DNA of 61,037 bases, filler included. It is 12 parts of 12 records of this genome, joined end to end, with 100 filler letters (N's around TTAATTAATTAA, not from the genome) between each part and the next. Parts side by side here need not be neighbours in the genome. Positions count along the whole stretch, not along the records: positions 49,893 to 53,323 come from SRR7504441_10139; 11 more parts are not named here. One strand, given 5' to 3'. The translations under genes and the position numbers were made by a program. This document shows positions 8,355 to 53,458 of the stretch, piece after piece. Every line of letters begins with the position of its first letter. Within the stretch, counting starts at the first letter, position 1. The notes below the pieces were generated by a model. It was not told the origin of the DNA. It ran no database searches and saw nothing but the letters and a program-made list of their open reading frames with translations.

Positions 8355-8454
8355 NNNNNNNNNNNNNNNNNNNNNNNNNNNNNNNNNNNNNNNNNNNNTT
8401 AATTAATTAANNNNNNNNNNNNNNNNNNNNNNNNNNNNNNNNNNNNNNNNNNNN
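8355..8454. other. Artificial contig spacer (first of 11; others start at 14744, 19158, 24641, 31850, 35234, 38820, 43624, 49793, 53324, 56787)
   Basis: Identical 44N + TTAATTAATTAA + 44N blocks that put stops in all six frames. Confidence 0.98.
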
Positions 8455-25027: not shown

Positions 25028-28000
25028 TTAGCCAGACTCCGGTGGGTCGCGAACGTAGAAAAGCACGTAGGCCCCGGCGCTGACCACCTTCTCTGGAGCC
25101 ACTTTGGACACGGTGCTGTCGTTGAAGTGGTACCACCCGTCTTCGCCACTTCTGCTTGTGCTCTCATGCTCTGCTCCACTCTCGTCCTCGGCAGCAGGTG
25201 CCTCCTCCTCGGCAGCCGGTGCCTCGCAATGCTCACCACCCCCACGCCACTCCGCACCTGCCTGAGTCTCCTCCTCGGCAGCTGGGGCCTCGTCCTCGGC
25301 AGCAGGGACCTCGTCCTCGGCGGCCGCAGCAAGGATCGCTGTCGTATGTATTGTGTTGCTCGGGCGAGCATACGCGGTGTAGTGCCCGCCCGAGAGCGAG
25401 CCCGAGTGGTTGATCACCCCATACAGGCTGTACGAGCCGTCCGTCCCAGGCAGCCGGAGCCCGCTCAGAGGGAACTCGATCACCGACGAGATCTTGCCCC
25501 GCCGGCTCGTTGTCTGGTAGAACCGCTTCAGGTGCACGATCAGCACCGGCGGCAGATCGCCAAACCCGATCCGCTTGTCGACTGACTGGGCCGCGTTGCA
25601 GGTCGGGCAGAAGAAGGCGTCCTCCCCGCTCAGCCGCTCCGGCTTGACAAACTCGTCGATGCACTCCTCGAGCGTTAGCGACCTCTGGTCGAGTGCCTTG
25701 CCCTCCGCCACCGACGAGTGCACGGCTGGCTCCTCGAGCAGTGGGCTCTCCTCCTTGGACGGCCAGACCGCCTCCAGCCAGCCGCTCTTGGCCGCCGGCA
25801 GCTCGACTGGCTGGTCGTCCTCCAGCACCTGCACGCGCTCGCCGCTGCCCCGCGTGGCTATCCGCAGCCCAAACCCACTGCCAGCCGGAAGCGTCTGCCA
25901 AGCAATCGCCGCGCGCACCCGTGCGTAGAGCTCGAGTCCGCACACCGGCTGGTCGCGCGGCACGCTCACCAGCCCCGGCTCGGCCACAGCGGGTGGCAGC
26001 TTGTCTATCCTGCGGGGCAGCTTGGACACCACGGCCAGGTCCGGGCTCTGGCCTATCTGGATGGTGCCCGGGTCGATCCCGTCGGCCACCAGCTTCTTGC
26101 GCAGCTGCTTGGCCTTCTTGAACGCCTCAGTCCGCTGGAACAGGAACGCCTCGTACTGCGGCTCGTCCAGCCCGGCTGGCGGCTTGAGCTTGGAGGCGAT
26201 CATGCAGTCGACGTACGCCGGCTTGTGCTTCTCGAGCTGCTCCAGTCCATTGGCCCGCCGGAGCAGCACCTTGACGTTGCCCGGCTGGTGCTCGAGCGAG
26301 CCGGTCGCATCGTGCACCACTTGCTCCCATTCCTTCTGCTGCGCGAAGCACTGCGCCCGGTTGGACAGGCACGAGGCCGCCAGCCCCGACTGCTTGGCCC
26401 CAGCCAGCCGGTCGAGCGCCGCCGTGTAGCTCTCGATCGCCTGTGGGAACCTGCCCGCCTTGTAGTGCTGGTTGCCCTCCGCTTTGAGCTCGACTGCCGC
26501 CAGGTTGGCCTCCTCATCCACACTTGCCGCCGGCTCGCCCGCCGGCTCGCCCGCCGGCTCAGCCGCCGGCTCGGGTTGCGTTTTGCTGGCGACATAGTGC
26601 GCAAGTCGGAAGACGAGCGGCCTGCCGAGCAGCAGGTCGAGCACAGGGTCGTGCCCGCGCCGCTGAGCCAGCTCGATGCAGCTGTCGCCGTGGTTGTCCT
26701 TGAGCTCGACCGACGCCTTCAAGGCAAGCAGCTGCTGCACCGCGTCTGCGTGCCCCTCCTTGGCCGCCAGATGCAGCGCGGTCTCGCCGGCCTTGTCCTG
26801 CGTGTCCAACAGGCAGCCGGCGCTGCTCAGCAGGGCCAGCAGCTCCGGCTTGGCCAGCCCGGCTGCCTGGTGCAGCCCGGTCTGGCCGGTGGCCTCCCGC
26901 TTGCTGTTTGGGTCGGCCTTGGCCGCCAGCAGCTGCTCCACGCACTGCAAGTGCCTGTCCCTCGCCTTGAGGTAACAGTTCCCAAGCATTAGGTTGATCG
27001 GCCCCTGCCCGTCCTGCGCCTGCTCGAACTGGCCCTGCTCGATCGCCAGCTTGAGCATGCTCGGCTCGCCGTTCTCAACTGACTTCCAGAACCCAATCCC
27101 CTTGTCTGCCTGCCCGGCCGGCATCATCTCGACCGCCTCGCCAGCCGGCCCGTCGTCCCCGCCAAACATGTCAGCCAGGTCTTGCCAATCTGCCCCAGTC
27201 ATCTCCATCCCTGACTGGGCCGTCACGCTGTCGTCGCTCGCATACCCGCTCGCCTGCTCCGGTGCTGTCGCTTGCAGCGCGGCATCAGGCATCCCGCCCA
27301 CAGCCGGCTGGTCCTCCGGAGGGCTATCCGGGACCTCGCCGCTGAGCAGCTGCATCACGGCCTGCTCCTCGTTCCCTCGGTTGCTGTCGAGTGCCTTCCG
27401 GGCCTGCGCCTGCGAGCACCCGACGAACTCCATCAGCTGCTCAGACTGAGACCTCTCCCGGGTGCCGCCCTCGGCCGCAGGCCAGCCCGGCTCCTCGGCT
27501 GCAGGCCCCGACGGCCCCGGGAGCGCAATCACCGGCGGCAGGTCGACCTCGACTGGCTCTAGAGCGGCCAGCTGCTCCGGATCGGCCGGCGACTGGCCCC
27601 TTGGAGTGCTCTCTACTGGCGGCTGCATGTTGCCTTCTAGCAGCAGCATGACCGCCGAGTCGACTGACCCGTTGCACTGCTTGATCGCCTGCCTTGCCGT
27701 GTCCACCGAGACGCACATGGCCTCGGCTAGCTGGAGCGCCGAGGCCTCCACCTCCTCATCATTCGGCTGCTGGGCGCTCTGGGCCTTCTCCACAAACCGC
27801 GACCACAGACCGGCCTGCTCGGGCTCCTTGGGCTCTTCGTCGCCGGGCTCGAGCTCGTCAGCCGCGGGCTGGGCGGCCGGCGGGCTCTGCGGGGGCTCGG
27901 CTGGCCGGTCCGGCTCGGCTTGTGCGGCGCAGCTGAACTGGCACGCGTCTTGGCCCTCTACCAGGCACACGGCATACAGCCGGGCGCTCGCGCAGCTGTC

Positions 28001-29561
28001 CAGCCCGTCGGCCCGGACGAGCACCCGGGTTATCCTGTGCTCGCTCGCCACACACACCTGTCGGCCAGTCGGTCGGGCCGGGCGCGCAGCTTACCTTCCA
28101 GAGCTCCGCAGCTGGCGGCCGGTCGAGCATTCGGCGCATCTGATCGATCAACTCGGGCACTGCGCTCCAAGGAGCCAAACGGACTCCGAGCAGCGCCGGG
28201 AGCGAGAGCGTGCCGCCCGGCCAGGGCAGCACGGTCAGCTGCCGGCCAATGAGCAGCGGGACGGGAGGCAGCGCACCTCAAAGGTCTGGGCAAAGCTGTT
28301 GGGTAGCGGGAGGCTGAGCAGCATGGACGGGTCGGCCTTGTCGAAGTTGGACTGGCAGGCCGGGCAGCTGAGCTTGCTCACCAGCTGTCCGCGGAAGAGG
28401 GCCGAGACCATCGAATGCGAGTTGCCCTTGGTGTCCCAGCTGCACAGATCCTCGTGCATCCCGTCCAGCAGGCACCCGAGCAGCTCCTGTGCGTCGTGCT
28501 GATGACTGCCCTCAAATTGCTTCGAGCGCAGCCCCAGCTGCTGCTTCAGATCCCCCGGGCTGATGGCGCCGTGCCCTGCCCCAGAGGCTAGCACCCGCCC
28601 CGGGGCACCGCGCACCGCCGTTCCAGAGCTGGCAGCTGAGCTGGGCATAGGCCTCGACCAGTTTGCCGCCGGTGCCGAGCGGGTTTGTCCGGTTGATGGC
28701 GGGGGCGTGGCTCTGGTCGAGCATGCTCTGGGTGAGCTCTGCTGTGTTGCTCAGACACTGCAGCACCGAGTTCATGTAGCACGTGTTGCCCTGCCGCACG
28801 CTCAGACAGCCCCCCGGCCAGCGCACCAGGTTGTAAAGCCCGCACAGTCCGGGGCCGGCCGCCTGCCCGCTCGGGCTGTGCCGGTCGTGCTGACGAGCTG
28901 AGTGCGGCTCTAAACCGCTGAGAGCGCTCGTGTTGCCCACGAGCAGCTTGGTCACTTGGTCCGGCCAGCGCCCGTGCCGGTCCATAGCCTCCAGCGTCAC
29001 CTTGACCGGCTCCAGCCCGATCTCGCCCAGCGGCCGCTCGAGCAGCTCCTCGCCAGCCAGTGGTGGCTCCCCCGCCTCCCCGAGCAGCCGGATCCGCGAC
29101 CCGCCAGGGGACTCGTTGAAGTGGAGCGCCAGCGCCTGGAGCAGCTGCCCGACCTCGGTCCGGCGGCTCACCATCAGCAGCGCCTCGTCGATCTCCTGCA
29201 CCTGGTCCGAGCCCGGTATCTTGTCCAGCTTGACCGCCCATATAAACAACGGCGACAGCTCGGGTGCGCCCTCCAGCACCCTCCGCCGGATCGGAGTGGC
29301 CGCGGTCCCGAGCTCGGCCCAGCACTCGGCCGAGACCCAGGCGTAGTCGGCCGGGTAGTCCAGCCCGGGCCGGAGCCGGCGGGTCTCCCAGCCGGCCAGC
29401 AGGTCCTGGTAGATGTCTTGGTCCTCCGGCACCAGCAGCCCGGCCTGATCCAGCCCGGGCGGCCCCGACAGCGGATCGGCCCGGTCGGCCCGCCAGGCGA
29501 GCCAGGCCTTGTGCCACTCGGCCGGCACCAGGTACACCAGCTCGTCCAGCGACTCCTCCAT
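25028..29561 (-). CDS. USP4/11/15-like deubiquitinase: DUSP + UBL-like + split catalytic domain with UBA-like, ankyrin and TPR insertion
   Basis: YLVPAEWHKAW (DUSP). GLYNLGNTCYMNSVLQCL after removing intron 28791-28826. QHDAQELL, LPPVLIVHLKRF, INHSGSLSGGHYTAY and WYHFNDSTV present. Other introns: 28576-28615, 28239-28276, 28058-28094. Confidence 0.9.
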
Positions 29562-31849: not shown

Positions 31850-31949
31850 NNNNNNNNNNNNNNNNNNNNNNNNNNNNNNNNNNNNNNNNNNNNTTAATTA
31901 ATTAANNNNNNNNNNNNNNNNNNNNNNNNNNNNNNNNNNNNNNNNNNNN

Positions 31950-33483
31950 CCTGGAGCTGCTGCACGAGCATGGTTGTGACGGTAGCGCCTGACGTGGTGC
32001 TGAGCACCTGAAGCACCTGGTATGCCTCGCTCCGTTCGAGGCCGTCGAGTGTCAGCGTCAGAGCCCCGTCGCTGCGACGCCCGAACCAACCCCTACCTTT
32101 GGTGCGGCGCCCGAACAGCCCGCTAAAGGTGTTCTCCAGCTCGGACTGGACCCTTTCAGAATAACTCCTTTGCGACTGCTTCTGGAAGTGGACAACGACC
32201 AAGAGCACGATCACCACAAGCCCGGCAATCTGGAGAAGAGGAGAGAGCCAGTAGTCCTTTGCCGTGCAGGGGTCGAGGTAGATCTCTTCGGCGCCGCACT
32301 TCCCTTGGCCGATCCCAAAGTATGTGGCCTCTGAGTTGTCGTTCCAGCCCGCGCAGTACGGAACGGTAATCACGTATCGATCTGTGGTCTTCACGCTAGC
32401 GGATCCCCTTGGCCTCCAGAGCTCGCCGCTACTCGGGGCCGGATTGAGATCTAGGTCCCAGCACAGCTGCTGCTTAAACGCGTGGGCATCATAGAACATC
32501 TTGGTGATGTCTTTGAGGTTGTTGGTCACCGGCCAGTTGTCGATCTTCCCGTTGAACTCGCTGGCGTGCTGGAACATCGATACCGCCGACTCGAGCTTGC
32601 TCACCTCCCACGACCCGAGTGGTTGGTTGAACTTTATGGCGAAGCGGAACATGTCGTCCATCTTGGTCACGGAGCTCACGTTCCAGCGGTCGATGTTTGG
32701 GTTGCAGGTGTGTCCGCCCCACGTCCACGACCCGGTCCAAGACCCAGAAGCACTCAGGATCCCGCCGCCGTAGGTGTTTGTACCTCCAAACAGGTTAGAC
32801 ATGTCGGTGATCTGCCCAGTGTCCCACCCCGCGATTGGCCCGTACTTTTCGACAGCCGCCGCGGTCGTCTTCGGGTCGCACCACTCGACGGCCGCCTTCT
32901 GCAGCACCGTGTACCTGCCGTCGATCTTGTTCACGATCCCGACCTCCGCGCAGGTCTTCTGAGCTTCGACAAGGGCTGGCTTCAGATCGATCCCGGATTC
33001 TTCCGGGATTCGGGCTGTCTCATTCTTGATACGGACTTCCAGCGGCTCGCACACGCCGTCGTCACCCGCGTCACCCGCGCTCCAGAAGCCACCCGCGTCA
33101 CCCGCGCTCCAGATGCACACGCCATCGCCACCCGCGCACCTCCCGGTGCAGGCAGTCTCGTTCGCGAAGTCGCCGCACTTCTCGGTCCCCGAGGGCACTA
33201 TTGCACTTGCCGAGGGCACTACCGCACTTGCCAACGCCTCGCCGTCGCAGGCAGTATTCGTCGTCTCACACAAACCCTGGGCGGCTTCCGCCGCGGGGCC
33301 CTGCTCAGCCGAGTCTTCTCCCACGGCGGGCCAGGCTTTGTCGTTCCAGGTGCAGCTTTTGCCGCCCGCGCATCCTTGTTCCGGGCATGCTCCCTTGCTC
33401 GTGTAGGATTCGCAGGCGTCGAACCCGCGCGCTGCGGGGACGAGCAGGCACGAGAGGAGGGCCACCGCCGCCAGAAGCTTCAT
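31950..33483 (-). CDS. Signal-peptide + Cys-rich + DUF285 (BspA-like) repeat + TM surface protein, 3' truncated
   Basis: MKLLAAVALL signal peptide; repeats WDTGQITDMSNLF, WNVSSVTKMDDMF..A..FNQPLGSW, MFQHASEFN; TM LLQIAGLVVIVLLVVV. Confidence 0.85.
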
Positions 33484-35385: not shown

Positions 35386-38300
35386 CTAAGTGATGCGTTC
35401 GATTGTTTCTATGACACCATGTAACATGGTCGAATCGTTTGCCTCTCGGCCATCATTACACGTATTCGGTGCAAATGACAATATTTGACGATAGCAATCC
35501 TTCCAAAGTTCCGTCAAGTGATTGTGCGAGCTCGAGCTTTGAGTCAATTTTATTCCGTCCCGCACGAGCTCACACGCCATATGCAGAGTCTGAGCTGGCA
35601 ATGGGCTGCCTGTCTTGTTGCCACGGAGCTCTTGAGCGGCTGCGAGCACATGTTGCAGACCCGAAAGCAGATACTTGACGCTTTGCCCTTTGATGGCTCC
35701 CAGAGCCATGCGATGACACGATAAAGCCAGCCCGAGCAGTGCAGCCGTGCGCAGAAGGCTCGACTCCTCAGAGTTCTCCGAGAAGACAACCAGTGCTCTC
35801 TCAAACCCGCATGTGGCCAAATTGAACCGGGACTTGCTGAGCTTGCCACTTTCAGCCGGCTCGACAAACAGTCGAGCAAGTTCGAGCTGGGCTTGGCCAG
35901 AGACTATACCCCTACTGAGGTTCCGAGATTTGCACAGCTCTAACGCCCGGTTGCATAGCTCGCTTGCTGCGCTGTGCCAATCAGTGCCAATCGATGGTGG
36001 CGATATGTGCAACCTGATAGCAGCTCGGACGAGCATCAGGGCATTCAGTTCAGAGAGGTAATCACTCAGTCGCTGATCACAGCAAGCTTGAGTGGCCATG
36101 TTCATGGCTGATTGAGCGCCCATAATGGCAGCATCGCCTAAGATGGCGACTTGCTGTGGAGCCGGCTGCCTAATCTGCTCGGCGTTAAGAATTCCTTCGC
36201 ACTCGATTTCAAAGCCCGGGCCAGATACAATCCGATCAGCGGCCCATGAGCGCAAAGCGGCTCGAGCCATCACAATCATTGCTCGGTCACACCTCATGGC
36301 AGCCTGCTCAAACCCTTGGCTACTGGCAGCTAGCATCTCTTCTGCCAGTCGGACAGATGGAGCTTGAGGCGCACTGACTGCCAAGCAGCCGGCGGAGGCA
36401 TAGGCCAGGCAGAGCTTGCGCTTGAGGAACAGGCCGACATGGCTGGACCAACTGTGGTCTGGGATTAATAGATCAGCGTACAAGGGGATCGCTGTTTGAA
36501 TGGCTGCAAGCTCAGACTGCACTGCTGCCTGGCCGAGAGATAGGCCAAGCCTTGCAACTAGCTCGGTTGCCGCTTCAGTTTGAACCCTCTCAGAATTGCA
36601 ACTGTGAGATAGACAGTCAGCTTGCAGGTGTTTCCACAGCTGTGAACTAATCTGTGAATGCTCCTGGCTGCGCACACCAATAAGAAGGAGAGCAGATGCA
36701 TGGTCACCCAACAGATGCAAACTGACTGCTAAGCGATAGAAGCTGGTTTGAAGACCCTGTTGAGCAAGTTGGATCATCCTCTCGACCTTTAACGCCTCCT
36801 GCGGCTGCCAGGCCGACACCTGACGCACAACATCGAGGAGCAGGAGGGCTGCTTGCGCAATTCGTGATATGCCCTCAGAGCTTGGGCTTGCCGGTGGTTT
36901 GTCATAGGTGCTGCAAGGGAGTCTCGGGATCATGACTCTTGTAGTCACAAGAGAAACAGGACTCGGGGGCAGCCTGTGCTCTTGGGGCTCGGTCAATTGA
37001 AACGCCGCTCTACTCCAATAGACCAATGCCTCGTCGTTTTGCGCTGGCCAGCATGTCTCATCGTTCAACAGCAGTGCAGTGGCCGTTTGGATCTGAACTG
37101 CCAGCCGGAGACAGGCCAGTTTTTCGCCTGCGCGCTCCTCAGCATGAGCCACTCCCAGCTTGGCTTGACAGGTTGACAGGAGCTCTTGTGCTGACCTGGC
37201 ACCCTGGATCCTATCTTGAGGCCCCTCTGCATGTGAAGCTCTTGCAAGCAAATGAGCGGCGGACTGATAGCAGAGCATAGCAACAGGGAATTGTAGCTGG
37301 CGGCCAGGGACCTGTATCGGCTGGAGACTCGTATCTGCGGCCTTTGAGTGCACTGCTCCTAGTGCAGAGAGTTTAAGCTGACATCCTGTTGCGGTACTTG
37401 ACTGGGTCAGCCAGTGCGTCACACCCTCCGTCATGACCGCTTTCCTGAGCCATGTGAACACAGCCAAGGTCTTGGAGAGCGCAGACTCGACTTCTCTTCT
37501 AAATGCAGGCCGTTTGTAAAGTTCGTACGTCTTGTGGTGCTCATACCGCTGCACCACACCATTCTTGTGGACGCAGATAGCGAAGCCTGGACATCCCGCA
37601 AGAAGGTTCTCTAGCCAGATTTCTATCAGCTTTCCATGGGATGCGGCGCTATCCACATCCTGCAGGTGGAGCGAAATGACACCCTCAGCATCCGAGTGCG
37701 AGGTGTAGAGGTTGCCGCCAAGCAGTATGGACATGTCTTGTACCCTCCATATGCCAGCTTGCCTAAACAGGCTTCCTGCAGACTCACCCGTCAGCAGCAT
37801 TAGACTATCCTCGTGGCTGTATTGACCATCTTCACAGCTGTTTCCGGCCCCTTCCTCAGAGCTCTCCGATGATACTGACTGCGAGATGAATTCCTCAAAC
37901 AGTGGCCCAGACTCAGGGCCCGCATTGTGCCAGTACCACCGATCCGACAGCAGCCTGGCTTTTTCCATCGTAGCAGCCGCTGCTGCACGAGCTTGGGCTG
38001 CCTCGGTCTCGGCCTGCACAGCCGCGGCCTCTGCAAGATCGGCTTCGGCTGCCAGCCTTCTGGCCAGCTCCGCTGCCTTCTCAGCTGCCAGCCGCGCCTG
38101 CTTTGCCACCTTGTCCATCTCCCTCGCCACAGCGTCCATCGACTCAGACCGGGTCCAGGCCACATCACTGGCCTCCTGCGCCTGCTGTACCGCAGCCACC
38201 GTAATCGACTGCGAGCTCCACTCCTCCTCCTCCTCCTCCTCCAACGGCCGGGGCTCCTCGGCCTCCTGCGGCGCGAATGGGGCCTCGTCGATCACGACCA

Positions 38301-38685
38301 TCCCGCCCACCCGGTGCACCGCCATAGGCTTGGCTTCCCGGCCGCCGGTGGCCATTGCTTTAAATATCTTCTTCACGGCGCTCGCGGTGACCACGACCTC
38401 AACCTCGCTTCCCCTCGCGGCCAGTGCCAAAGGGATCAGCGCGCTGCTCGCAAACTCGGCTAGCTCGGCCTCGGCGCTGACCGGAGCGCTCCTCGGCGCG
38501 CGGTCGGCGGTCTGGCGGGACAGGTCGTGCCCAGTGGAGAGTGGGACGTGCCGGGCCTGAGAGCGGACGTCCAGCACGCACTCGCGGTAGCCGAGGTCGT
38601 CAAGCAGCAGCTGCTTCCGGAACTGATAGTCCTCCCCCAGGTTGAGGTAGGCCACCGGCGACAGATGGAACAGCGACGACTCCAT
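35386..38685 (-). CDS. EDRF1: Erythroid differentiation-related factor 1 (EDRF1)-like protein
   Basis: VKKIFK...MAVHRVG...IDE and WRVQDMSILLG...SLHLQDV...WLENLLA...AICVHKNGVVQRYE match the conserved EDRF1 N-terminal blocks; helical C-terminal region. Confidence 0.78.
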   Translation of the reverse strand: MESSLFHLSPVAYLNLGEDYQFRKQLLLDDLGYRECVLDVRSQARHVPLSTGHDLSRQTADRAPRSAPVSAEAELAEFASSALIPLALAARGSEVEVVVTASAVKKIFKAMATGGREAKPMAVHRVGGMVVIDEAPFAPQEAEEPRPLEEEEEEEWSSQSITVAAVQQAQEASDVAWTRSESMDAVAREMDKVAKQARLAAEKAAELARRLAAEADLAEAAAVQAETEAAQARAAAAATMEKARLLSDRWYWHNAGPESGPLFEEFISQSVSSESSEEGAGNSCEDGQYSHEDSLMLLTGESAGSLFRQAGIWRVQDMSILLGGNLYTSHSDAEGVISLHLQDVDSAASHGKLIEIWLENLLAGCPGFAICVHKNGVVQRYEHHKTYELYKRPAFRREVESALSKTLAVFTWLRKAVMTEGVTHWLTQSSTATGCQLKLSALGAVHSKAADTSLQPIQVPGRQLQFPVAMLCYQSAAHLLARASHAEGPQDRIQGARSAQELLSTCQAKLGVAHAEERAGEKLACLRLAVQIQTATALLLNDETCWPAQNDEALVYWSRAAFQLTEPQEHRLPPSPVSLVTTRVMIPRLPCSTYDKPPASPSSEGISRIAQAALLLLDVVRQVSAWQPQEALKVERMIQLAQQGLQTSFYRLAVSLHLLGDHASALLLIGVRSQEHSQISSQLWKHLQADCLSHSCNSERVQTEAATELVARLGLSLGQAAVQSELAAIQTAIPLYADLLIPDHSWSSHVGLFLKRKLCLAYASAGCLAVSAPQAPSVRLAEEMLAASSQGFEQAAMRCDRAMIVMARAALRSWAADRIVSGPGFEIECEGILNAEQIRQPAPQQVAILGDAAIMGAQSAMNMATQACCDQRLSDYLSELNALMLVRAAIRLHISPPSIGTDWHSAASELCNRALELCKSRNLSRGIVSGQAQLELARLFVEPAESGKLSKSRFNLATCGFERALVVFSENSEESSLLRTAALLGLALSCHRMALGAIKGQSVKYLLSGLQHVLAAAQELRGNKTGSPLPAQTLHMACELVRDGIKLTQSSSSHNHLTELWKDCYRQILSFAPNTCNDGREANDSTMLHGVIETIERIT

Positions 38686-44015: not shown

Positions 44016-45925
44016 TCATAAAATCCCCTTGATCAACTCGTACGTTCCCCAGCACATGGCCGCACTCGGCGCAGCAAACATCATGCGGGGAAGAGTGCCT
44101 CTCCAAAAGCTGCGCGGTCCCTCCTCACGCAACATCGTGCACACTGTGTCGGCAAGTCCAAGGTACTTGGTGCCGGCGTCGGTCGAGCCACAGTATTTGA
44201 GTGTCTGCTGGGTCTGCAGTCTGGTCTTGACACAGTCGAGTGGCTGTGTTACTGCAGATGCAAGGACGCCACTAAGTCCAGCTGAAACAAAGTTCCAGCC
44301 CAGGCTAGTCATCCCCCGATCCACCAAGTTGATCTTGAAGGACTCGTTGGCGGCCACAAGCACAGCATAGAAAGGACATTCCATGAGCAAGGTTGAAGGC
44401 AAGCTTCGCACGAATGCAAATGGACCCTCGGCCTTGACCACGCTCCTGACGCAGCCAAGTACGCTGCTGTAGCATCCGAGCTGCATCCGTTGTTTGATCA
44501 CGTCGACTGGCACAATGATGCTATCATGGACCACTGTAGCCATGGCGCCACACGCTGCAGCCCGAACTGGCTCGTGATGACCCGGTGTAAGCAGCGCACT
44601 CTTTGTGAACTCGTAGGTTGCAAAAAGTCCTGAATTACAGTATGAGCATTTAAGGCTATGGGAGGCGAATACCGATATGAGCCGGGATGCAACCAGCGCC
44701 AATCACCCCGCAGCCTCTAAACATCCCGCTAACACCGTCCTTTTGAATAATGGATGCCACAGTCTCTCTGAAGCTGAGTCGTGCGGAACTGGCACTGACA
44801 GGTGCGGCTTGCATCTGTGTCTTGATTGTGTCTACAGGGTACATAGCAACGTGCTCCATAATTCCAGCGCAACTTCCAGCAATAGCATGCTTCCAAAACT
44901 CGCAGTTTGCCTCTCGTTCCTGCAGCACCAAGGGTAAGGCTTTCCTATCTACTGCTATACAATTAATTGAGCACCTCCCAAGCGAGTTCTTGCCAGCTGC
45001 CCTCTGGTTCTTCCTGCCTCTCGAGAGAGAACTGCTGGAGGGCTTGCTTAACCACCTCGTACGTCCCCCAGCAGATCCCAGCCGATGGCCCGGCCTGCAG
45101 CACACGTGGCAGCGTCCCCCTGAAGAATCCTCTCGCACCCTCCTGCTGCCAGATGTTACGCACAATCGACAAGACACTGGTGGCATCATGCTCGACAGAG
45201 CACTTCTGGTGCTCCCAGATCCCAGCAGTCTGCACCCTAGTCCGAATCGTGTCCAGAGGCAGGGTCACGAGCGCTGCGGCCGAACCCGAAACAGCGCTGC
45301 TTAAGTAGAATGCGGCTGCTGGGGACTCCGGACCGAGCCCGAGCCCGAGTTTGATCGCCTCGTTCACCGCCACCAGCGCTCCAGTGTACGGCCCGTTTAG
45401 CACAAGCGTGATTGGCAGGCTGCGGTAGAGTGCCCCAGGGCCTTCCTGGCGGACTATCTGCCGGAAGCAGTGCAGCGGGCCGTCGTACGCTCCCAGCTGC
45501 AGCCGCTGCTTCACCACATCGGTGGGCGTGAGCAGCACGTCGTGCACCACGCTGCCCGCCACGCCGCACAGCGCGGTGCCCAGCGGGCTGTTCTGGCCTG
45601 GGGCGACCAGATAGTGCCGGCAGACCTCGTAGGTACCGAACAGCCCAATGTGAGCCGGGATCACACCGAGGGCGATCGCGCTGGCTCCACGGTAGAAACC
45701 GGCCTTGCCGTGGCTGCCCTGCACGATGTCGGCCGCCACAGCGGAGAGCCTGGGCTGGCTGCTGGTGGCCTGCATCCGGGTTTTGATGGTGTCCAGCGGG
45801 AACATCGCCAGGTGCTCCGCGAACCCAGCCAAGCTCCCGGCCACTGCGTGACGCGCGAAGGGAACGTCCCCGGCACGCTCCTCCCAGGAGAACAGGTCAG
45901 GCGTCTCCTCCATCCCTGCGCCCAT
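44016..45925 (-). CDS. Mitoferrin (Mrs3/4-like) mitochondrial carrier; two tandem units fused by splicing (about 603 aa)
   Basis: Two sets of three P-x-D-x-x-K/R signatures (PLDTIKT/PTDVVKQ/PLDTIRT and PVDTIKT/PVDVIKQ/PLDCVKT) with mitoferrin EH..M(F/Y)P, PAH and HD motifs. Introns 44920-44974 and 44630-44672. Confidence 0.85.
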
Positions 45926-46027
45926 GAAGACCGCTGTTCAGCGCTCGACGACCCGAGGGCTCCCCACATCCCTCGGATTGGAGTGAACCCCGTTCTAACG
46001 GAAGCCCGGCCGGGCTCACTGGCGAGC

Positions 46028-47818
46028 ATGGCGAGCTCTCTCTTTCTCGGCGTGGCGTTGATGGTGGCGACCGCGGCGGCCGCAGGGCTGCCCGCGTCGG
46101 TGGACGTGCTGGTGTACTCGGCCAACCCGGCTGGGATCGGGGCGTTCATCGGGGCGGCCGAGCAGGGGGCCAGCGCGCTCCTGGTAGAGCCGCTTACAAT
46201 GGTGGGCGGGATGGGCGCGGCGGGCGGTGTCGGGCTGATGAACCAGGGCTGCGGGGACAACCGGAATGGAGACGGAGCCCGAGGCTGTACCGGGCTCAGC
46301 CGGGAGTGGGGGCTGCGGAACGGCCGGCTGCTCGGATTCGAACAGGAGACAGTGGTGCTTTTCCCGGAGCCGGAGGTGATGGCTGCCAGTTGGACCCAGA
46401 TGATCAGCAGTCGCGGACTAGACCGGCAAGTCCGTCTGGGCTGCCGGGTGACCGGAGTGCGCCGCGAAGCGGCCTGCGTCACCGGGGTCAGTGTGCTGTG
46501 TGACGGGGCAGTGGAGCCGGTGTTTGTGGCAGCCAAGGTGGTGGTTGACGCTTCGTACGATGGCGATATCATGGTGGCGGCGGGCGTGGAGCACGTGAGT
46601 GGCAGGGAGGCATCGGCCGAGTTCAACGAATCTCTCGCCGGGTTCATGCCAGCGCCACTCCGGGTATCTCAGGTTAATGCCACATTCGACAACGGCACCA
46701 AACTCAAAGGCGTGAGCACACAGCCGGTGCTCGCCGCGGGCTCGGCAGACGACCGGCTGATGGCCTACCAGTACTTTGCGTGCGTCACGCAGAACAAGTC
46801 GGTTGCACGGGCATTTGAGCCGCCAGATGGCTACGACCCAGCAGACTTCTTGCTGCTCCAGCGAGAGATCGACTGGCTAGTGGCCTCCAAAACCCACCCG
46901 CGCGGGCCTGATCTGCGCTATTTCTCGGAGTATCAGTATTACAGCGCCAACAAGGGCGGGCGGCTGTTGCCTGGCGATAAGGTCTTACTCTGCTGCGGAA
47001 TGGGTTTGAGCAACTGTGATCAGCCGGAGCTGAACGCAGGTTACTCTTCAGCCAACCACTCAGAGCGAGCCCGAATCCAGGCCCGGCACAAGTACTACCT
47101 GCTAGGGAGCCTGTACTACATGGCGCACGATCCTAAGGTGCCGTCTTGGACGAGGGAACAGTTCAGCAGCTGGGGGCTCTGTGCTGACCAGTACGAACAG
47201 TACGACAATTGGCCGCCGCAGATATACAATCGGATCTCGAATCGGATGCGCGGCGAGTATGTGACTACCCAGAATAACATTGCGCAGCCCCGGGTCAAGC
47301 CGGACGGCATCTCCATGATGGCCTGGACATTTGACCAACACTTCATGAGCAGGCTGGCAGTGCAGGACGCGCACAACCCGCAAAGGCTAGTGGCAGCCAA
47401 CGAAGGTTTGCTCCGGCACGAAGTTGTGCCGCCGCACCGGGCCTGCTCGCATCCGGAGGCCAAGTGTGGAGATCAGGCCGAAGGCCAACCTGGCCAGCCC
47501 AGCGACATGTGCCAGCACAATTGGTATGATGTCCCGTTTCGGGTGATGCTACCGAAGCGTACCCAGGTGATGAATCTTTTGGTCCCGGTGGCTCACTCCT
47601 CCAGCTCTCTGGCCTATTCGAGTCTTAGGATTGAAGGAGGGTTTTGCGACATGGGGACCGCCGCTGGTGTGGCGGCTGGCTTGGCGATCAAGCGATTGAG
47701 GAATATGCCCGATGGCGATTCGTGCCTCTCGATCCACAATACAAATGTGACGCAAGTCCAAAGCATTCTAATAGATGACTATAAGCAACGTGTCCATGGA
47801 CCGCCGGACTGGAAGTAA
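46028..47818 (+). CDS. Secreted FAD-dependent oxidoreductase (PF12831-like, xanthan-lyase-associated type)
   Basis: Signal peptide; DVLVY..NPAG, VGGMGAAG, VVDASYDGD, GREASAEFNESLAG, WGLCAD, WPPQIY, YDVPFRVMLP, SSLRIE; intronless. Confidence 0.85.
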   Translation: MASSLFLGVALMVATAAAAGLPASVDVLVYSANPAGIGAFIGAAEQGASALLVEPLTMVGGMGAAGGVGLMNQGCGDNRNGDGARGCTGLSREWGLRNGRLLGFEQETVVLFPEPEVMAASWTQMISSRGLDRQVRLGCRVTGVRREAACVTGVSVLCDGAVEPVFVAAKVVVDASYDGDIMVAAGVEHVSGREASAEFNESLAGFMPAPLRVSQVNATFDNGTKLKGVSTQPVLAAGSADDRLMAYQYFACVTQNKSVARAFEPPDGYDPADFLLLQREIDWLVASKTHPRGPDLRYFSEYQYYSANKGGRLLPGDKVLLCCGMGLSNCDQPELNAGYSSANHSERARIQARHKYYLLGSLYYMAHDPKVPSWTREQFSSWGLCADQYEQYDNWPPQIYNRISNRMRGEYVTTQNNIAQPRVKPDGISMMAWTFDQHFMSRLAVQDAHNPQRLVAANEGLLRHEVVPPHRACSHPEAKCGDQAEGQPGQPSDMCQHNWYDVPFRVMLPKRTQVMNLLVPVAHSSSSLAYSSLRIEGGFCDMGTAAGVAAGLAIKRLRNMPDGDSCLSIHNTNVTQVQSILIDDYKQRVHGPPDWK

Positions 47819-48053: not shown

Positions 48054-49792
48054 CTATCCTTGGCTGTGCCGACCACCAGAGGCCGCCATCCTACTCATGT
48101 ATTGCTTCTGGTACTCAGCGGCCTTCTTAGCGGTCGCGTCATCAGCGCCCACGTTGAAGTCTTCCAGCTGCTTGAATGCCTCCCGCTTGTCAATCAGCGG
48201 CCGGAGAGCCGGTGGGTACTGGCCGACGCAGTACCACGAGCCGGGCGCATCGCAGACGCGGTTGTTCGGGTCGGCAGCCCACCGCTTGGATGTCATGTCT
48301 ACAGACTTCACCTTGAATATTCGGACCTTGCCGTACTTGGAAATGAACACCTCCTCGAACCTGTTGGAGTCGGCATTCACGCCCGGCCGCTGCCGGTGGC
48401 TGTGCAGCACGTACAGCAGCGAGGCAGCCATCATCGGGGTCGGGTTGCCAGCCTGATCAAACCCAAACATCGAGCAGGTCGGGTCGCCGGGGCAAATGTC
48501 GTTGAACACCGAGTTGCCAATCCGAGCCATGTGCGGTGACTTGGCCAGATCGTCGCCACCACCGCCTGTCCAGATCAGCACGTAGTCCGCCAAGTGCCTC
48601 ACAATCCTGTGAGCGTCCTTGAGCGGCGAGGTGAGCGCCCGGCCGAGCGTGGCGATGTGCTCGTGGTTCCAGGTATTCCCATCGGCGATCGTAGTCCGGT
48701 TGGCGATCCCAGTGATCTGGTATCCGTAATCCCACCAGGACATCACTCGAGCGTCGGCCGGTGTGTTGTCGCGCAGCCACCAGTACGCCTCACGATAGTC
48801 GTCCACCATCACGTAGCTCCCGTCCCGGAGCGGGGCGCGGAACATGATCTGAGGGTTGGACATCTGGTTGGCCATGTCGTGCGACCGCGCGTAGAAGTCA
48901 AGGCTGTAGCTGTAGCTGTGCCACATGATCAGCACAGCGACCACGATCTTCACGCCGCGGCCGGCATGAGCGTCCCAGATCCCGGTCATGGTGTTCTGGA
49001 GCATGCTGGCCATCTCGCCAATTGCAGTCTTGGTGCCAGTTCGAGCCGGCCTGCGTGGCGGCGGGAAGAGGCTGTCGAGGACAAACTGGAGGAAGCGTGC
49101 GATCAGGATCCCGGAGAGCGCGGAGGCCACTGGGCCGGCCAGCAGCACCAGCCGCATCATCTTAGCCGAGAAGAAGTAGGCAGAGAACGCGTAGCAGTAC
49201 AAGAAGTAAATTGCCTCGCTGCGTGGCCCGAGGATTGAGACCGCGAGTCCTACGGGAGCCGTGTAGTAGGCGTAGTGAAGGAAGTTCCAGTAGGCCCGGG
49301 CGTCGGCCGGCTGGTGCTCGGCCACGGAATCGACCAGCGGGTTGCCTGTCCGGGTGTGCTTTACAAACAGGCCACGGACACGCGACGAGAGCGGCCCAAA
49401 GTACCCTGTAGGGAAGAGAACAGCCACTATCACGGCAGCCACCGCGCCGATGGCCAGGAAGTATTTGACCCGGTGCGCGAGCACGGTCTGGAAGTTCCAG
49501 TTGTGCTGCTTGCGTTGGTACTCGACTAGAGCGAGAACCTGGATCGCAAGGAACACAGCCATTGGCATCAGCTGTTCCAAAGACTTGACGGGTGCCCAGC
49601 CGACCACCGGCACGTGTGTGGCGCCGATGGTGCCGATGACGTAGAACAGCGAGTAGGCCTTGTGCAGCGTGGTGTTGAAGTCGGCCCGGAAGGCGTACAT
49701 GGCCGCCAGCACAGCTGCGTGCATCCCGACCAGGTTGATCACGAAGACGTATCCGCCCCACACCGCCGCCATGTAAACATGCGCCAGCCCGG
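48054..49792 (-). CDS. STT3: Oligosaccharyltransferase catalytic subunit STT3, 5' truncated
   Basis: WGGYVF, SVAEHQP, DDYREAYWWLR, MSWWDYGYQITG, DGNTWN, DLAKSPHMARI. Confidence 0.97.
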
Positions 49793-49979
49793 NNNNNNNN
49801 NNNNNNNNNNNNNNNNNNNNNNNNNNNNNNNNNNNNTTAATTAATTAANNNNNNNNNNNNNNNNNNNNNNNNNNNNNNNNNNNNNNNNNNNNATGGAATA
49901 CCCGGCAAAGGCTACTCACTATAAAAAATTAATAGTGCTATGAAGGGCATCACTTGGCAAGATTGCAGCGGCTGGCAGT

Positions 49980-52900
49980 TCAAGGGGGGCAAGGCATTAT
50001 TACGCCAAGTTCAGAAGAGAAGGTCTGAAGTGGCTCGTCTGGAGTCTCAAGAAAAGAAGGAGCAGGCGAGGGCTGGTGAGGAAGCGGCCAAAGCTGCGCC
50101 AAGGCAGAAAGCTGTTGGACAGTGTCCGCGATCCAACCTCCCTGTTGTGCCCAACCTGCTAGCTCTGAACTCGAATACGATTGCAGAATATCGACGTTAA
50201 TTCTGTTCATCATCGGCATGCCCTCTTTGTCAGTGGGATTTGGAGTCAGTGGGTCTTCGATCTCTGGTACCGTATAGCGTGAAAAGTGCTGCACCTGTAA
50301 CTTGACCTCGCCGGTCTCAGGGTCGTAGCACTCAGGGAAACAGATATGAGCAACACCTGTCATCAGACTAGGCAGGACCTCCAAGCTATATGACCAGCCA
50401 ACCCATGCGCCTTGCTGGTTGAATCGCATCCAGGTATTATCCTCCTCCCTAAACCAACAAAGGAGCGAACACGCTTCCCAGTCGTGTGCAAATCCAGTTG
50501 ACGCTGGCGACACCAAGCGGTGGCTATGCCGCGAAAAGTGCGTGACCACATCACGCCTTGGCGGGAGCTCTGTGCAGTGCTTATGTTCAAAGCAGTCGCA
50601 CCAGCCCTTCACGTCTACAGTCTGCCTTTCAAAGATCTTTAGCTTGGCTAAAGCGATTTCCATCTCCGTGTCAGGCAGCAACACTGGTGGTCCGAATACC
50701 CGAGCCAGTTGGTACTGCTTGGCCAGGCACTCGACCTCGCTCGCCAAGTACACTGCCTCTGGCAAGCTGGACGAGTACGTCAGTACACCATCATTGGCAA
50801 TCAAGCAGGCCTGCACCCCAGCGCCAGCCAGCGCCTCGACGATTGAGTCTGACAGCTCCTCGCTGCCAGTTGTAGCATATTTAGCACATGGAATCTGCTT
50901 GCCACCAGCCACTACAACCCTATAGTCGAAAAATGGGATGCCGCTGCGCTGAGCTGAGAGGGCCGTGGCAAATGCGGAGCGAGAGTGCACTACCGCCTTG
51001 GCGTCTGGGAACTTTAGGTAGACATCACGGTGCAGGCGCCATTCACTTGAGGGTATCAGCTTGCCATAGTACCCACTCTCTTGCTGGTCAAGGTCCATGA
51101 ACACAACCTGATGAGGCTGCATTGTGCTGCAGGCCACACCAGCCGGGGTCACCAGAAAGCCCCCTGGGACACGACAAGAAACGCTGCCCCGATGCATACC
51201 TTCGGCAAGCACCTGCTGTGCTGTAGCAGTCACCTCGAGTCTGGCCACAAGGTGGCCCTTCCAGAGTGCAGTTCCATGTGTGTCCACCCAAAGCGCCATA
51301 CGCACAGGGTCTGATTTATCGTGGATTCCCCTCGTGTCAAACTCTTCTGTAGAGTTGTTGCAGGCTGCTGCACTCCATGACAGGCTGGCAGCTGCTGTAG
51401 TGGTTGTAGAGCAAAACAAAATCATGTGGCGAGCAACTGGCAAAGGCTTTGCGCTGTGCCTCGAAAAATGTGTTACTAAACAGGAAGATTGACTCTGCTG
51501 TACAGTCAAAGCTGTCAGATTTGCAGGATCCTTGGTGGCAGGGTGTGGTGCCTGCGTCGAGAGGTCCCTCTCTGCATCTGGTTCATTCAAGTATGCAACA
51601 GCAGGCACGCCTAACAATTGTAGTTTTGAATCCCGGGTGCTCTGAAGCATACTACTTGAAGAGAGGACCTTGCTCCATACTCCAAGTGTAGTGCTTTCTT
51701 GAATGCTATCCCCTGCCCAAACTACTGCATGAGGGCTGATGACACATGCTGGCCCGATTGTGGCATGCCCAAATACCAACCCTAGTTTCTTTTCATATTT
51801 GTGCCCCATCAGAAAACAACCATCAACAACAGCTTCCTTGCCAATGCTGAGCCGTTCTGGCTCATGGATGAAGGGAGTATGAAATAAAGCATCCATAGAA
51901 ATATGAGCTCCGAGCAGATTCTGAAACAATGATACAATGCGTGTTCCTTGGAGCTGCATATTTACCATTAGAGATATCCGAGAAGCATAAACCTGCCGCG
52001 AAAGGTACTCTGAATAAGAAAATGGCCGCTCCTGCTCTGAAATGCTGGAGCGCCAAACAATCCATTTGTAGACAACCCAGACCAGGGCAAATGCGATGTA
52101 GAACACAGCTGCCATAGCGGCCACAAGAATGACTGCTGCGTTTCTGGACACGGGGCCTGTATGAGAAAACATCAAAAGAGTACCATACCCATCGAAATAG
52201 TCTGTAGTTCCGTAAAACAGATAGATACCGAGCTCATAAGCTGGCAACAATGGTGTCATAAAGCAGATCAGCATCAGGATCCGTGAACAGATCTGTACCA
52301 CTGCAATTTCCCAACCCAGCGACTCAGGAGAAGCTGAGAGCTGTGAGTCCTTCAAGACCAACGATCCAAAGACAACAGTGTCATCTTGTAATGAATCCGA
52401 CACCCACGTCAGAGCTCCGATCTGCACGCATGATCCAATGTCGATATCACCTGGTCCCACTATGGTAAACAGACCCAGGGCGCTGAAATTGCCAACTTGA
52501 ATGCAGGAACGTGTCTCGTAGCCAGGTTTGTTCTTAGCGGACGCGACTGTCAAGAACCTGCATACTGAAACCGCCACTTGGTCGCCAATCGAGATCATAT
52601 CAGCTTCAGAGGGCACAATAGTTGAGCTTGCGTCAATAAAGCTGCACTGCTTGCCAACTTGCATACCAAAGATACGAGCGAGGCCCACTACAAATGCTGA
52701 CTCCCCCAACCACCCGACAAACAAGAAAGCTGATAGAGAATAGAGGTAATCCACAAGCCATGCTCGCAAACGACGAATGGTAGTGTCTTCATGCTCCCCT
52801 ACATTAAGCTTTCCCAAGACGATCCATTTGAGCAGTATACATTGTAAACAATTCATAGTTGCACTCAGCCAGTAACCGACTACCCAGCGCAGCAGAGGTC

Positions 52901-53323
52901 CGAAGCGAAACGCCCAGGTCTGAGGGTCAGCCAAGATGGCCAGAACAAGCGCAAATGGCATGAACTGCGTGTAGAGGATGGGTCCAAACAGACACACCTT
53001 GCCCAGCGCTTCCAACTTCCACGCTTCAGATTCGTATTCACTGTTTTCTAGCTGTGATACTTTGTGTGCAGGGTTGCCACAATAACCGCCTCCTGGAACA
53101 GTCTGACTCCCCTCGAGCAAGACTGACAGAGGTTCTAGCACAACCATCTGTTCGAGCTTGCACCCAGGCTGGACTGCACTCTGCTGTCTCACTGAACATC
53201 CTGCCCCAATCTTCACCGGGTACAGGCGCAGCTTCTCAGTCTCAAACATGCGCGTGAGTATTCGGCCCTTGATGCTGGCCCCTGGACCAATAGAAACCAA
53301 GTCAAGCTCGCGTGGAAAGGAGG
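49980..53323 (-). CDS. Pls/PosA-like NRPS terminal (membrane-bound, hexapeptide-repeat) domain fused to a degenerate class II aldolase domain, 5' truncated
   Basis: Three LbH-like soluble units (DLVSIG..VKIG..GNPA; DMISIG..IQVG; ERLSIG..ATIG..GVPA) separated by TM pairs ending KWIV. Then FLVTPAG...PSSEWRLH..VY...AVVH...ACLIAN typical of the FucA/adducin fold. Confidence 0.8.
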
Positions 53324-53458
53324 NNNNNNNNNNNNNNNNNNNNNNNNNNNNNNNNNNNNNNNNNNNNTTAATTAATTAANNNNNNNNNNNNNNNNNNNNN
53401 NNNNNNNNNNNNNNNNNNNNNNNTTATTTGCTGTTTCACTGTACTCCTGAGTAATTAT

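Follow-up and report, generated by a model that had tools for sequence, protein, structure and literature searches.

Autoproteolysis at the tripeptide His-Phe-Ser (HFS) is known from Nup98 and PIDD, in which, according to the available text of PMC3210808, the serine is the nucleophile and cleavage depends on a phenylalanine that is buried between two beta-sandwich sheets and thereby strains the backbone. Replacement of the serine by alanine blocks cleavage in S. pombe (PMC4483485, available text). The ZU5, GPS and Nup96/98 domains were grouped by Zhang et al. into one autopeptidase superfamily, in which ZU5 domains are described as releasing peptidases of large multidomain bacterial toxins and surface proteins (PMC3482391, available text). 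The architecture of Pls, an epsilon-poly-L-lysine synthetase, is described as acetyltransferase-like domains interleaved with membrane helices (PMC8117764, available text). Here we describe an expressed gene of a marine eukaryotic microbe (a marine protist), the 3' part of which lies on contig SRR7504441_10139 (49893..53323, 3.4 kb) in a 61-kb window (the whole stretch of DNA analysed, 61,037 nucleotides). Its product consists of a Pls/PosA-like synthetase part with a C-terminal extension, and carries an HFSR motif at three domain junctions.

The likeness to the Pls/PosA synthetases lies in hexapeptide-repeat modules between membrane segments and in a match to the family model TIGR02353. The bacterial enzymes and the eukaryote-like relatives found in this analysis stop soon after the terminal domain, whereas the gene described here continues into the extension. 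For processing at the motif, the bacterial ZU5 releasing peptidases are the nearest functional precedent (PMC3482391, available text). The Nup98/Nup145N domain (MEROPS S59, PF04096) shares with the protein the H-F-S with a following basic residue and Tyr, and a beta-hairpin with a Y-x-PETG turn that this motif closes. In contrast to Nup98/Nup145N, the protein has no FG/GLFG repeats and no Nup96 partner, its host is a membrane synthetase, and the motif occurs three times, two of them without any domain. Its context is not that of a nucleoporin, with the synthetase part and an aldolase-like domain upstream and a tail without family match downstream. The ZU5/FIIND proteins (PIDD1, UNC5CL, NLRP1, CARD8) share the form [HS]-F|S, which in them is cut at the C-terminal edge of a small beta-sandwich, as far as the available texts describe it. 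Unlike in these proteins, no UPA or death-fold domain follows the site here; PIDD has its own ZU5 domain for each site, whereas two of the three sites here are without one.

An HFSR motif at three domain junctions

A single open reading frame (ORF) on the minus strand (49980..53323) occupied nearly all of the contig, which carried no other gene. It was open to the contig end at 53323, so that the gene is 5'-truncated, and ended in a stop codon at 49980-49982. Translation of window positions 49980-53300 (minus strand) gave a stop-free protein of 1106 residues (P0001). The layout of this protein is a Pls/PosA terminal domain, a linker, an aldolase-like domain, a small beta-rich module and a tail.

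The motif was found at three sites of this one frame. Site 1, LVTHFSRHS, was located at 51453..51479 (minus strand; residues 608-616, HFS at 611, codons 51470-51462), site 2, VVTHFSRHS, at 50523..50549 (minus strand; residues 918-926, HFS at 921, codons 50540-50532) and site 3, VQHFSRYT, at 50271..50294 (minus strand; HFS at residue 1005, codons 50288-50280). The peptide at site 3 reads ECYDPETGEVKLQVQHFSRYT in its longer form, ending at 50271. A preliminary description of this DNA had listed three HFS motifs bracketing the domains of the protein. Its positions agreed to the base with the translation, and each motif was indeed found at a domain junction. Site 1 was placed ~40 residues past the end of the Pls/PosA homology. 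Site 2 began at the very next residue after the PPRRD tail of the aldolase-like domain, where three (P0004, P0006 and P0008) of the 12 stand-alone aldolase relatives compared stop, within 0-2 residues. Site 3 followed ~80 residues beyond site 2.

The repeat of the HFSR motif is beyond chance. From composition, HFSR is expected 0.0045 times per protein and was observed 3 times. It was the only 4-mer present three times in the protein, and VTHFSRHS was the only repeated word of at least five residues. Of 5000 shuffles of the protein, 1 contained an exact 8-mer repeat and 422 contained a 4-mer in three copies. The two VTHFSRHS copies differed at 5 of 24 bases, all synonymously (P = 0.000225 for five random changes). 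Because all five differences are synonymous, the peptide rather than the DNA is conserved in the two copies, which do not represent a recent DNA duplication. V-[TQ]-H-F-S-R-[HY]-[ST] is a short linear motif kept by selection at all three junctions. A DNA-level element or a spliced-leader relic was also considered and rejected: the synonymous-only differences indicate selection on the peptide, and a dinoflagellate spliced-leader 16-mer was unmatched throughout the window even when 2 mismatches were allowed. Outside this gene, the long ORFs of the window contained no other HFS-type motif with such a context.

We tentatively favour processing at this motif, with site 3 as a self-cleaving F|S bond like that of the Nup98/ZU5 superfamily. 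The gene encodes a membrane synthetase of the Pls/PosA type that bears an unusual extension made of a linker, a degenerate aldolase/adducin-fold domain, a ~80-residue beta-rich module and a ~100-residue tail, and the motif would serve as the processing signal. Site 3 closes a beta-hairpin, YDPETG-x5-VQHF|SRY, which aligns with the final positions of the S59 profile of Nup98/Nup145, and the bond F1006|S1007 would be cleaved by an N-to-O acyl shift of its serine, as in that superfamily. Such a cut would either free the tail or leave it non-covalently bound. At sites 1 and 2 the putative scissile bond is surrounded by identical residues with no such fold upstream, and these sites, if cut, would need the site-3 module or a separate protease. 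If the HFS sites are cut, the range of Nup98/ZU5-type self-processing would widen to include a biosynthetic membrane enzyme from a marine protist. The self-cleaving module would also be much smaller than known ones, which could provide a compact self-cleaving tag and insight into the regulation of the synthetase.

Transcript evidence

Parts of the contig were present in seawater polyA metatranscriptomes from several studies. RNA cover was judged from four runs, with 31 bases on each side as the rule for bridging; parts of the contig without cover in these runs carry no meaning by themselves. At ≥99% identity, site 3 was bridged by X1 record 1 (50214-50460), and site 2 by X2 record 8 (50408-50767) and X3 record 11 (50473-50697). 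Site 1 was reached by a ~95%-identical variant with an unchanged motif (X3 record 15, 51350-51497). Upstream of the site-1 HFS codons this record extends for 27 bases, short of the required 31, and site 1 was not counted as bridged. Positions 51503-51962 were without cover in the four runs. Since this stretch is uncovered and site 1 unbridged, the join between synthetase and extension rests on this contig and its uninterrupted frame.

The gap at 51503-51962, the unbridged site 1 and a synthetase join seen on this contig alone would fit an artefact, in which a chimeric contig or non-coding read-through joins unrelated pieces. We consider such an artefact highly improbable. The frame is open across 1114 codons and passes through two family domains, the RNA contigs that bridge sites 2 and 3 are independent, and the octapeptide copies differ by synonymous changes only. 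The GC content at third codon positions (GC3) is steady at the first junction, with 0.50 in the synthetase part and 0.49 in the linker.

A further 152-base RNA contig of low depth (X1 record 2) shared 35 of 38 bases with 50272-50309 (minus strand), encoding EVKLQVQHFSRY, and diverged beyond. By hand translation, its 30-base loose end stays in frame and gives a related but different peptide. This single contig may stem from a diverged relative, paralogous or orthologous, that has kept the motif better than its other parts.

Resemblance of site 3 to the Nup98 autoproteolytic domain

Upstream of site 3 lies a small Trp-rich, beta-rich module (50295..50522, minus strand; residues 927-1002), with strands predicted at ~947-970 (pLDDT 55-66). 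It runs into an S59-like terminal hairpin, YDPETGEVKLQVQHFSRYT (50271..50327, minus strand; residues 992-1010), which contains site 3 and the predicted scissile bond F1006|S1007. In YDPETGEVKLQVQHFSRY (residues 992-1009), the H-F-S follows the terminal hairpin, as at the C-terminal end of the S59 domain. PF04096 was the only Pfam family matched in the last 186 residues and in the 90-residue piece between sites 2 and 3. In its alignment, residues 992-1010 are paired with positions 129-147 of the 148 in the profile, the last 19. The E-value was 0.18 with the whole protein as query, and 0.026 and 0.014 with the 186-residue and 90-residue pieces, respectively.

A 33-residue hairpin query (phmmer, E up to 10) matched 25 distinct PDB sequences, comprising 20 designer Kelch 'SAKe' proteins, two Keap1 Kelch domains, one 'AFFinger', NUP145 and Nup98. 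The scores of the designer proteins are inflated by six ECYDPET repeats per protein. Apart from these, NUP145 gave the best match (5hb6_A; E 0.21), at residues 121-141 of the 144 in the chain of its autoproteolytic domain; Nup98 (2q5x_A) matched with E 1.8 at chain residues 134-153 of 155. Among the PDB matches, the nucleoporin chains alone also covered the HFS part, at their C-terminal ends. A Kelch repeat was rejected as an identity for this region, with no Kelch Pfam match and a single unit of this kind.

In the ESM Atlas, residues 919-1106 retrieved three S59 clusters first (0.84, 0.83 and 0.83), followed by ZU5, FIIND and UNC5B (0.76-0.77), scores that, being under 0.9, count as leads only. 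A control with residues 540-700, which include site 1, retrieved no such family, the best result being a hypothetical protein at 0.75. The S59/ZU5 signal in the Atlas thus needs more than the octapeptide. Sites 1 and 2 gave no S59 or ZU5 signal in Pfam or, for the site 1 segment, in the Atlas.

On these sequence comparisons we regard the S59 resemblance at site 3 as genuine, albeit sub-threshold; membership of the site-3 module in S59 or ZU5 is not established. The preliminary description had likened the third motif to the Nup98 site, which has the form Y-x-PETG-x5-V-x-HFS-K-Y. The likeness persists at site 3, where it is weak and local, and falls away at sites 1 and 2.

The aldolase-like domain

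The domain between sites 1 and 2 (50550..51275, minus strand; residues 676-917) belongs clearly to the class II aldolase/adducin family (PF00596; E 2.6e-37, 128.9 bits against a gathering score of 22.2). It was modelled with a pLDDT above 90 by AlphaFold with an alignment of 60 homologues, and ends in the PPRRD tail. What sets it apart from the family is its fusion to a synthetase and the identical octapeptides on either side. Stand-alone aldolase relatives were 46-52% identical and share a conserved tail, F-[EQ]-R-x-H-A-x-x-PPRRD. The closest aldolase relatives include ORFs of two units in tandem (P0002, P0007 and P0014), joined by short linkers without HFS, and in P0004 three repeats of ~100 residues lie upstream of the aldolase unit.

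In an alignment with 14 homologues, the nearly invariant G-x-S-G-N loop was deleted, and three nearly invariant histidine columns carried the replacements H105R, H123D and H168D (numbered by the alignment's first row). In L-fuculose-phosphate aldolase (FucA), two of these histidines serve as zinc ligands and the loop as the phosphate-binding site. The set of three metal-binding histidines and the G-x-S-G-N loop that presumably marks active class II aldolases is therefore not intact. The domain is probably a non-catalytic pseudoenzyme and more likely a scaffold, as in adducin, whose head is a non-catalytic member of the family without the catalytic metal site; the domain here appears to lack it as well. 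The loss of the phosphate loop and of two presumed zinc histidines out of three makes the release of an active enzyme unlikely. Of the self-processed polyprotein with released modules that had been proposed in the preliminary description, the placement of motifs at the junctions was borne out, whereas the degenerate state of this module weakens the idea of an enzyme being set free.

Points against processing and rival explanations

Several results weigh against processing at the motif and are given together here. The single-sequence AlphaFold model of the last 206 residues had a pLDDT of 39.5. The preliminary description had suggested comparing the last ~200 residues with autopeptidase and ZU5 folds; a Foldseek search with this low-confidence model found no such fold, with nothing in the PDB at E 0.001 or better and an SH3 domain as the best match (E 0.24). 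The second AlphaFold model, made with the aldolase alignment, was confident for the aldolase domain alone, with pLDDT values from below 50 to 66 around the motifs. For the beta module and the segment around site 1, complex prediction scored 0.00, a result that carries no weight either way. The match to PF04096 reached 12.4-16 bits against a cut-off of 28.4 and covered 19 positions; no match at the gathering score extended across the ~148-position domain. Upstream of site 3 there are ~80 residues, compared with ~130 in the S59 profile, and the ~80 residues between sites 2 and 3 leave no room for a canonical S59 domain of ~148 positions. ZU5 (PF00791) and FIIND (PF13553) gave no Pfam match at E up to 10, and the Atlas scores have the standing of leads. 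Furthermore, PECYDPETGE (50301-50330, minus strand) fits the Kelch-blade consensus of the 'SAKe' propellers and Keap1. Since Kelch proteins match it too, the YDPETG turn is a common hairpin rather than one specific to Nup98. Finally, there looks to be no obvious benefit in releasing an aldolase-like domain that appears catalytically dead.

In another reading the motif stays uncleaved. It would be a repeated element for docking, regulation (e.g. through a phosphorylated Ser) or strand formation, within an extension that remains one polypeptide. Selection on the peptide alone implies no cleavage, neither the AlphaFold models nor Foldseek gave evidence of an autopeptidase fold, and an appendage with a regulatory or oligomerising role would suit a non-catalytic scaffold of the adducin type. 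Nup98-Nup96 orthologues that are not cleaved occur naturally (PMC4483485, available text). We rate an uncleaved motif slightly below processing in probability. In each of three independent look-ups, the combination of H-F-S and hairpin had its best, though weak, counterpart among autoproteolytic families, and the placement of the motif exactly at three domain boundaries is what is expected of a processing site. Even if uncleaved, it would be a linear motif under selection and without explanation, placed where the domains of an orphan architecture meet.

Processing by self-cleavage meets a difficulty at sites 1 and 2. Local alignments of the three site contexts yielded 8-9-mers alone, so that the likeness of sites 1 and 2 to site 3 is limited to the motif itself and these two sites have no domain of their own; the idea of a repeated domain was rejected on the same grounds. 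Both sites lie within apparently unstructured linkers of low model confidence. As cleavage needs a phenylalanine buried in a beta-sandwich (PMC3210808, available text), a bare linker would not supply the strain.

These properties would suit a separate cellular protease that recognises the motif and cuts three linker sites in the style of protist polyproteins, without any self-cleaving fold. The three sites are alike as a short linear motif only, sites 1 and 2 are in low-confidence linkers, of which linker 2 is fast in amino-acid change, and the tandem-aldolase relatives show that multi-unit precursors occur among the relatives. We judge such a protease rather unlikely. The linkers of those same relatives are without HFS. 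The modules here differ from one another, and one of them is probably inactive, in contrast to classical polyproteins of repeated mature units; the like units and conserved linker of protist polyproteins were not found. The extra S59-like hairpin at site 3 would also go unexplained, and we know of no protease of such specificity, although no search for one was made.

Self-processing at all three sites could be had from one module. A minimal HFS module of ~80 residues, a cut-down relative of the Nup98/ZU5 domains, would cut itself at site 3 and let each of the two identical VTHF|SRHS strands take the position of its terminal strand. The synthetase would thereby be trimmed at three junctions and the adducin-like pseudo-aldolase shed or parked non-covalently. 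We find this version improbable. If true, it would be the first HFS-type autoprocessing in an enzyme resembling a nonribosomal peptide synthetase (NRPS) and the first module to serve several sites.

A further point against processing is that no homologue with these three junctions was found in the collections searched, in which the architecture is an orphan; conservation of the motif across species accordingly had no homologue to be judged by. The synthetase relatives that run on past the synthetase domain (P0009 and P0015) and the aldolase relatives that continue past the aldolase tail (P0002, P0005, P0007, P0012 and P0014) showed no HFS there. In the best 150 of 4520 whole-protein matches, there was no fusion of a Pls-like and an aldolase domain and no HFSR; HFS occurred in one (P0075), inside its aldolase core. 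A word-index search with residues 600-1106 among near-length proteins gave no match at E 0.001 among 7991 scored candidates. Residues 915-1030 had no relative at E up to 10 among 33 shorter and 54 near-length candidates, and for this reason no alignment of the C-terminal module could be made. A metagenome scan with the last 192 residues returned 17 pattern matches and a scan of viral contigs with the last 522 residues returned 3, none of them relatives. A degenerate DNA pattern for QVQHFSRYT matched 4 loci in metagenome contigs, all stop-laden and out of frame; these loci look like one bacterial gene. The literature search found no paper joining autoproteolysis, nonribosomal peptide synthetase and Nup98, and no HFS-processed NRPS-like arrangement.

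Synthetase part, linkers and tail

The Pls/PosA-family terminal domain (51576..53323, minus strand; residues 1-575) consists of hexapeptide-repeat domains interleaved with hydrophobic segments. Residues 1-553 matched TIGR02353 at profile positions 131-686 of 695 (E 2e-22), with a score of 79 bits that is far under the 423-bit equivalog cut-off and marks a distant member or relative. Hydropathy peaks defined hydrophobic segments at residues 102-126, 189-211, 327-362 and 382-417, which fit the acetyltransferase-like and membrane-helix layout described for Pls (PMC8117764, available text). The contig breaks off within this domain, short of the first ~130 profile positions and of any adenylation or carrier domains. 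One relative, P0009, has an acyl-AMP-ligase-type domain upstream, and the corresponding part of this gene is likewise beyond the contig. Relatives of the synthetase part (P0003, with 35% identity, P0009-P0011 and P0015) end or diverge near query residue ~570, where linker 1 begins (51480..51575, minus strand; residues 576-607; no family match).

Linker 2 (51276..51452, minus strand; residues 617-675) is fast-evolving and was modelled with a pLDDT below 50. In variant RNA contigs, 5 of the 7 listed differences in residues 617-661 change the residue, M626L included, from which we conclude that the linker is weakly constrained. An internal start at M626 was rejected, as the ~95%-identical variant has Leu there. 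Residues 626-648 (51357-51425, minus strand) form a Ser/Thr/Ala-rich hydrophobic stretch with a mean Kyte-Doolittle hydropathy of 0.97. The stretch appears to resemble the N-terminal extensions of the stand-alone aldolase relatives P0008 and P0023, and it may be the relic presequence of a once separate gene. The C-terminal tail (49983..50270, minus strand; residues 1011-1106, 96 in number) has two predicted helices of low confidence and no family match.

The remaining window

The window is composed of 12 unrelated contigs of 3-7 kb, joined by N44-TTAATTAATTAA-N44 spacers (for example 8355-8454, 49793-49892 and 53324-53423). Such spacers separate the contig described here from its neighbours on both sides, so that adjacent ORFs in the window give no genomic context. 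Long intron-free ORFs were present on other contigs at 25028-28057 (minus strand), 35386-38685 (minus strand), 48054-49772 (minus strand), 31894-33483 (minus strand) and 45470-47818 (plus strand). They encode eukaryotic proteins, namely ankyrin plus UCH, EDRF1_N, STT3, DUF285 and FAD oxidoreductase proteins, and a HEAT protein is likewise encoded among the other contigs. The GC content varied from 0.50 to 0.70 between contigs. With its intron-free ORFs and this GC range, the contig set may be transcript-like or mixed.

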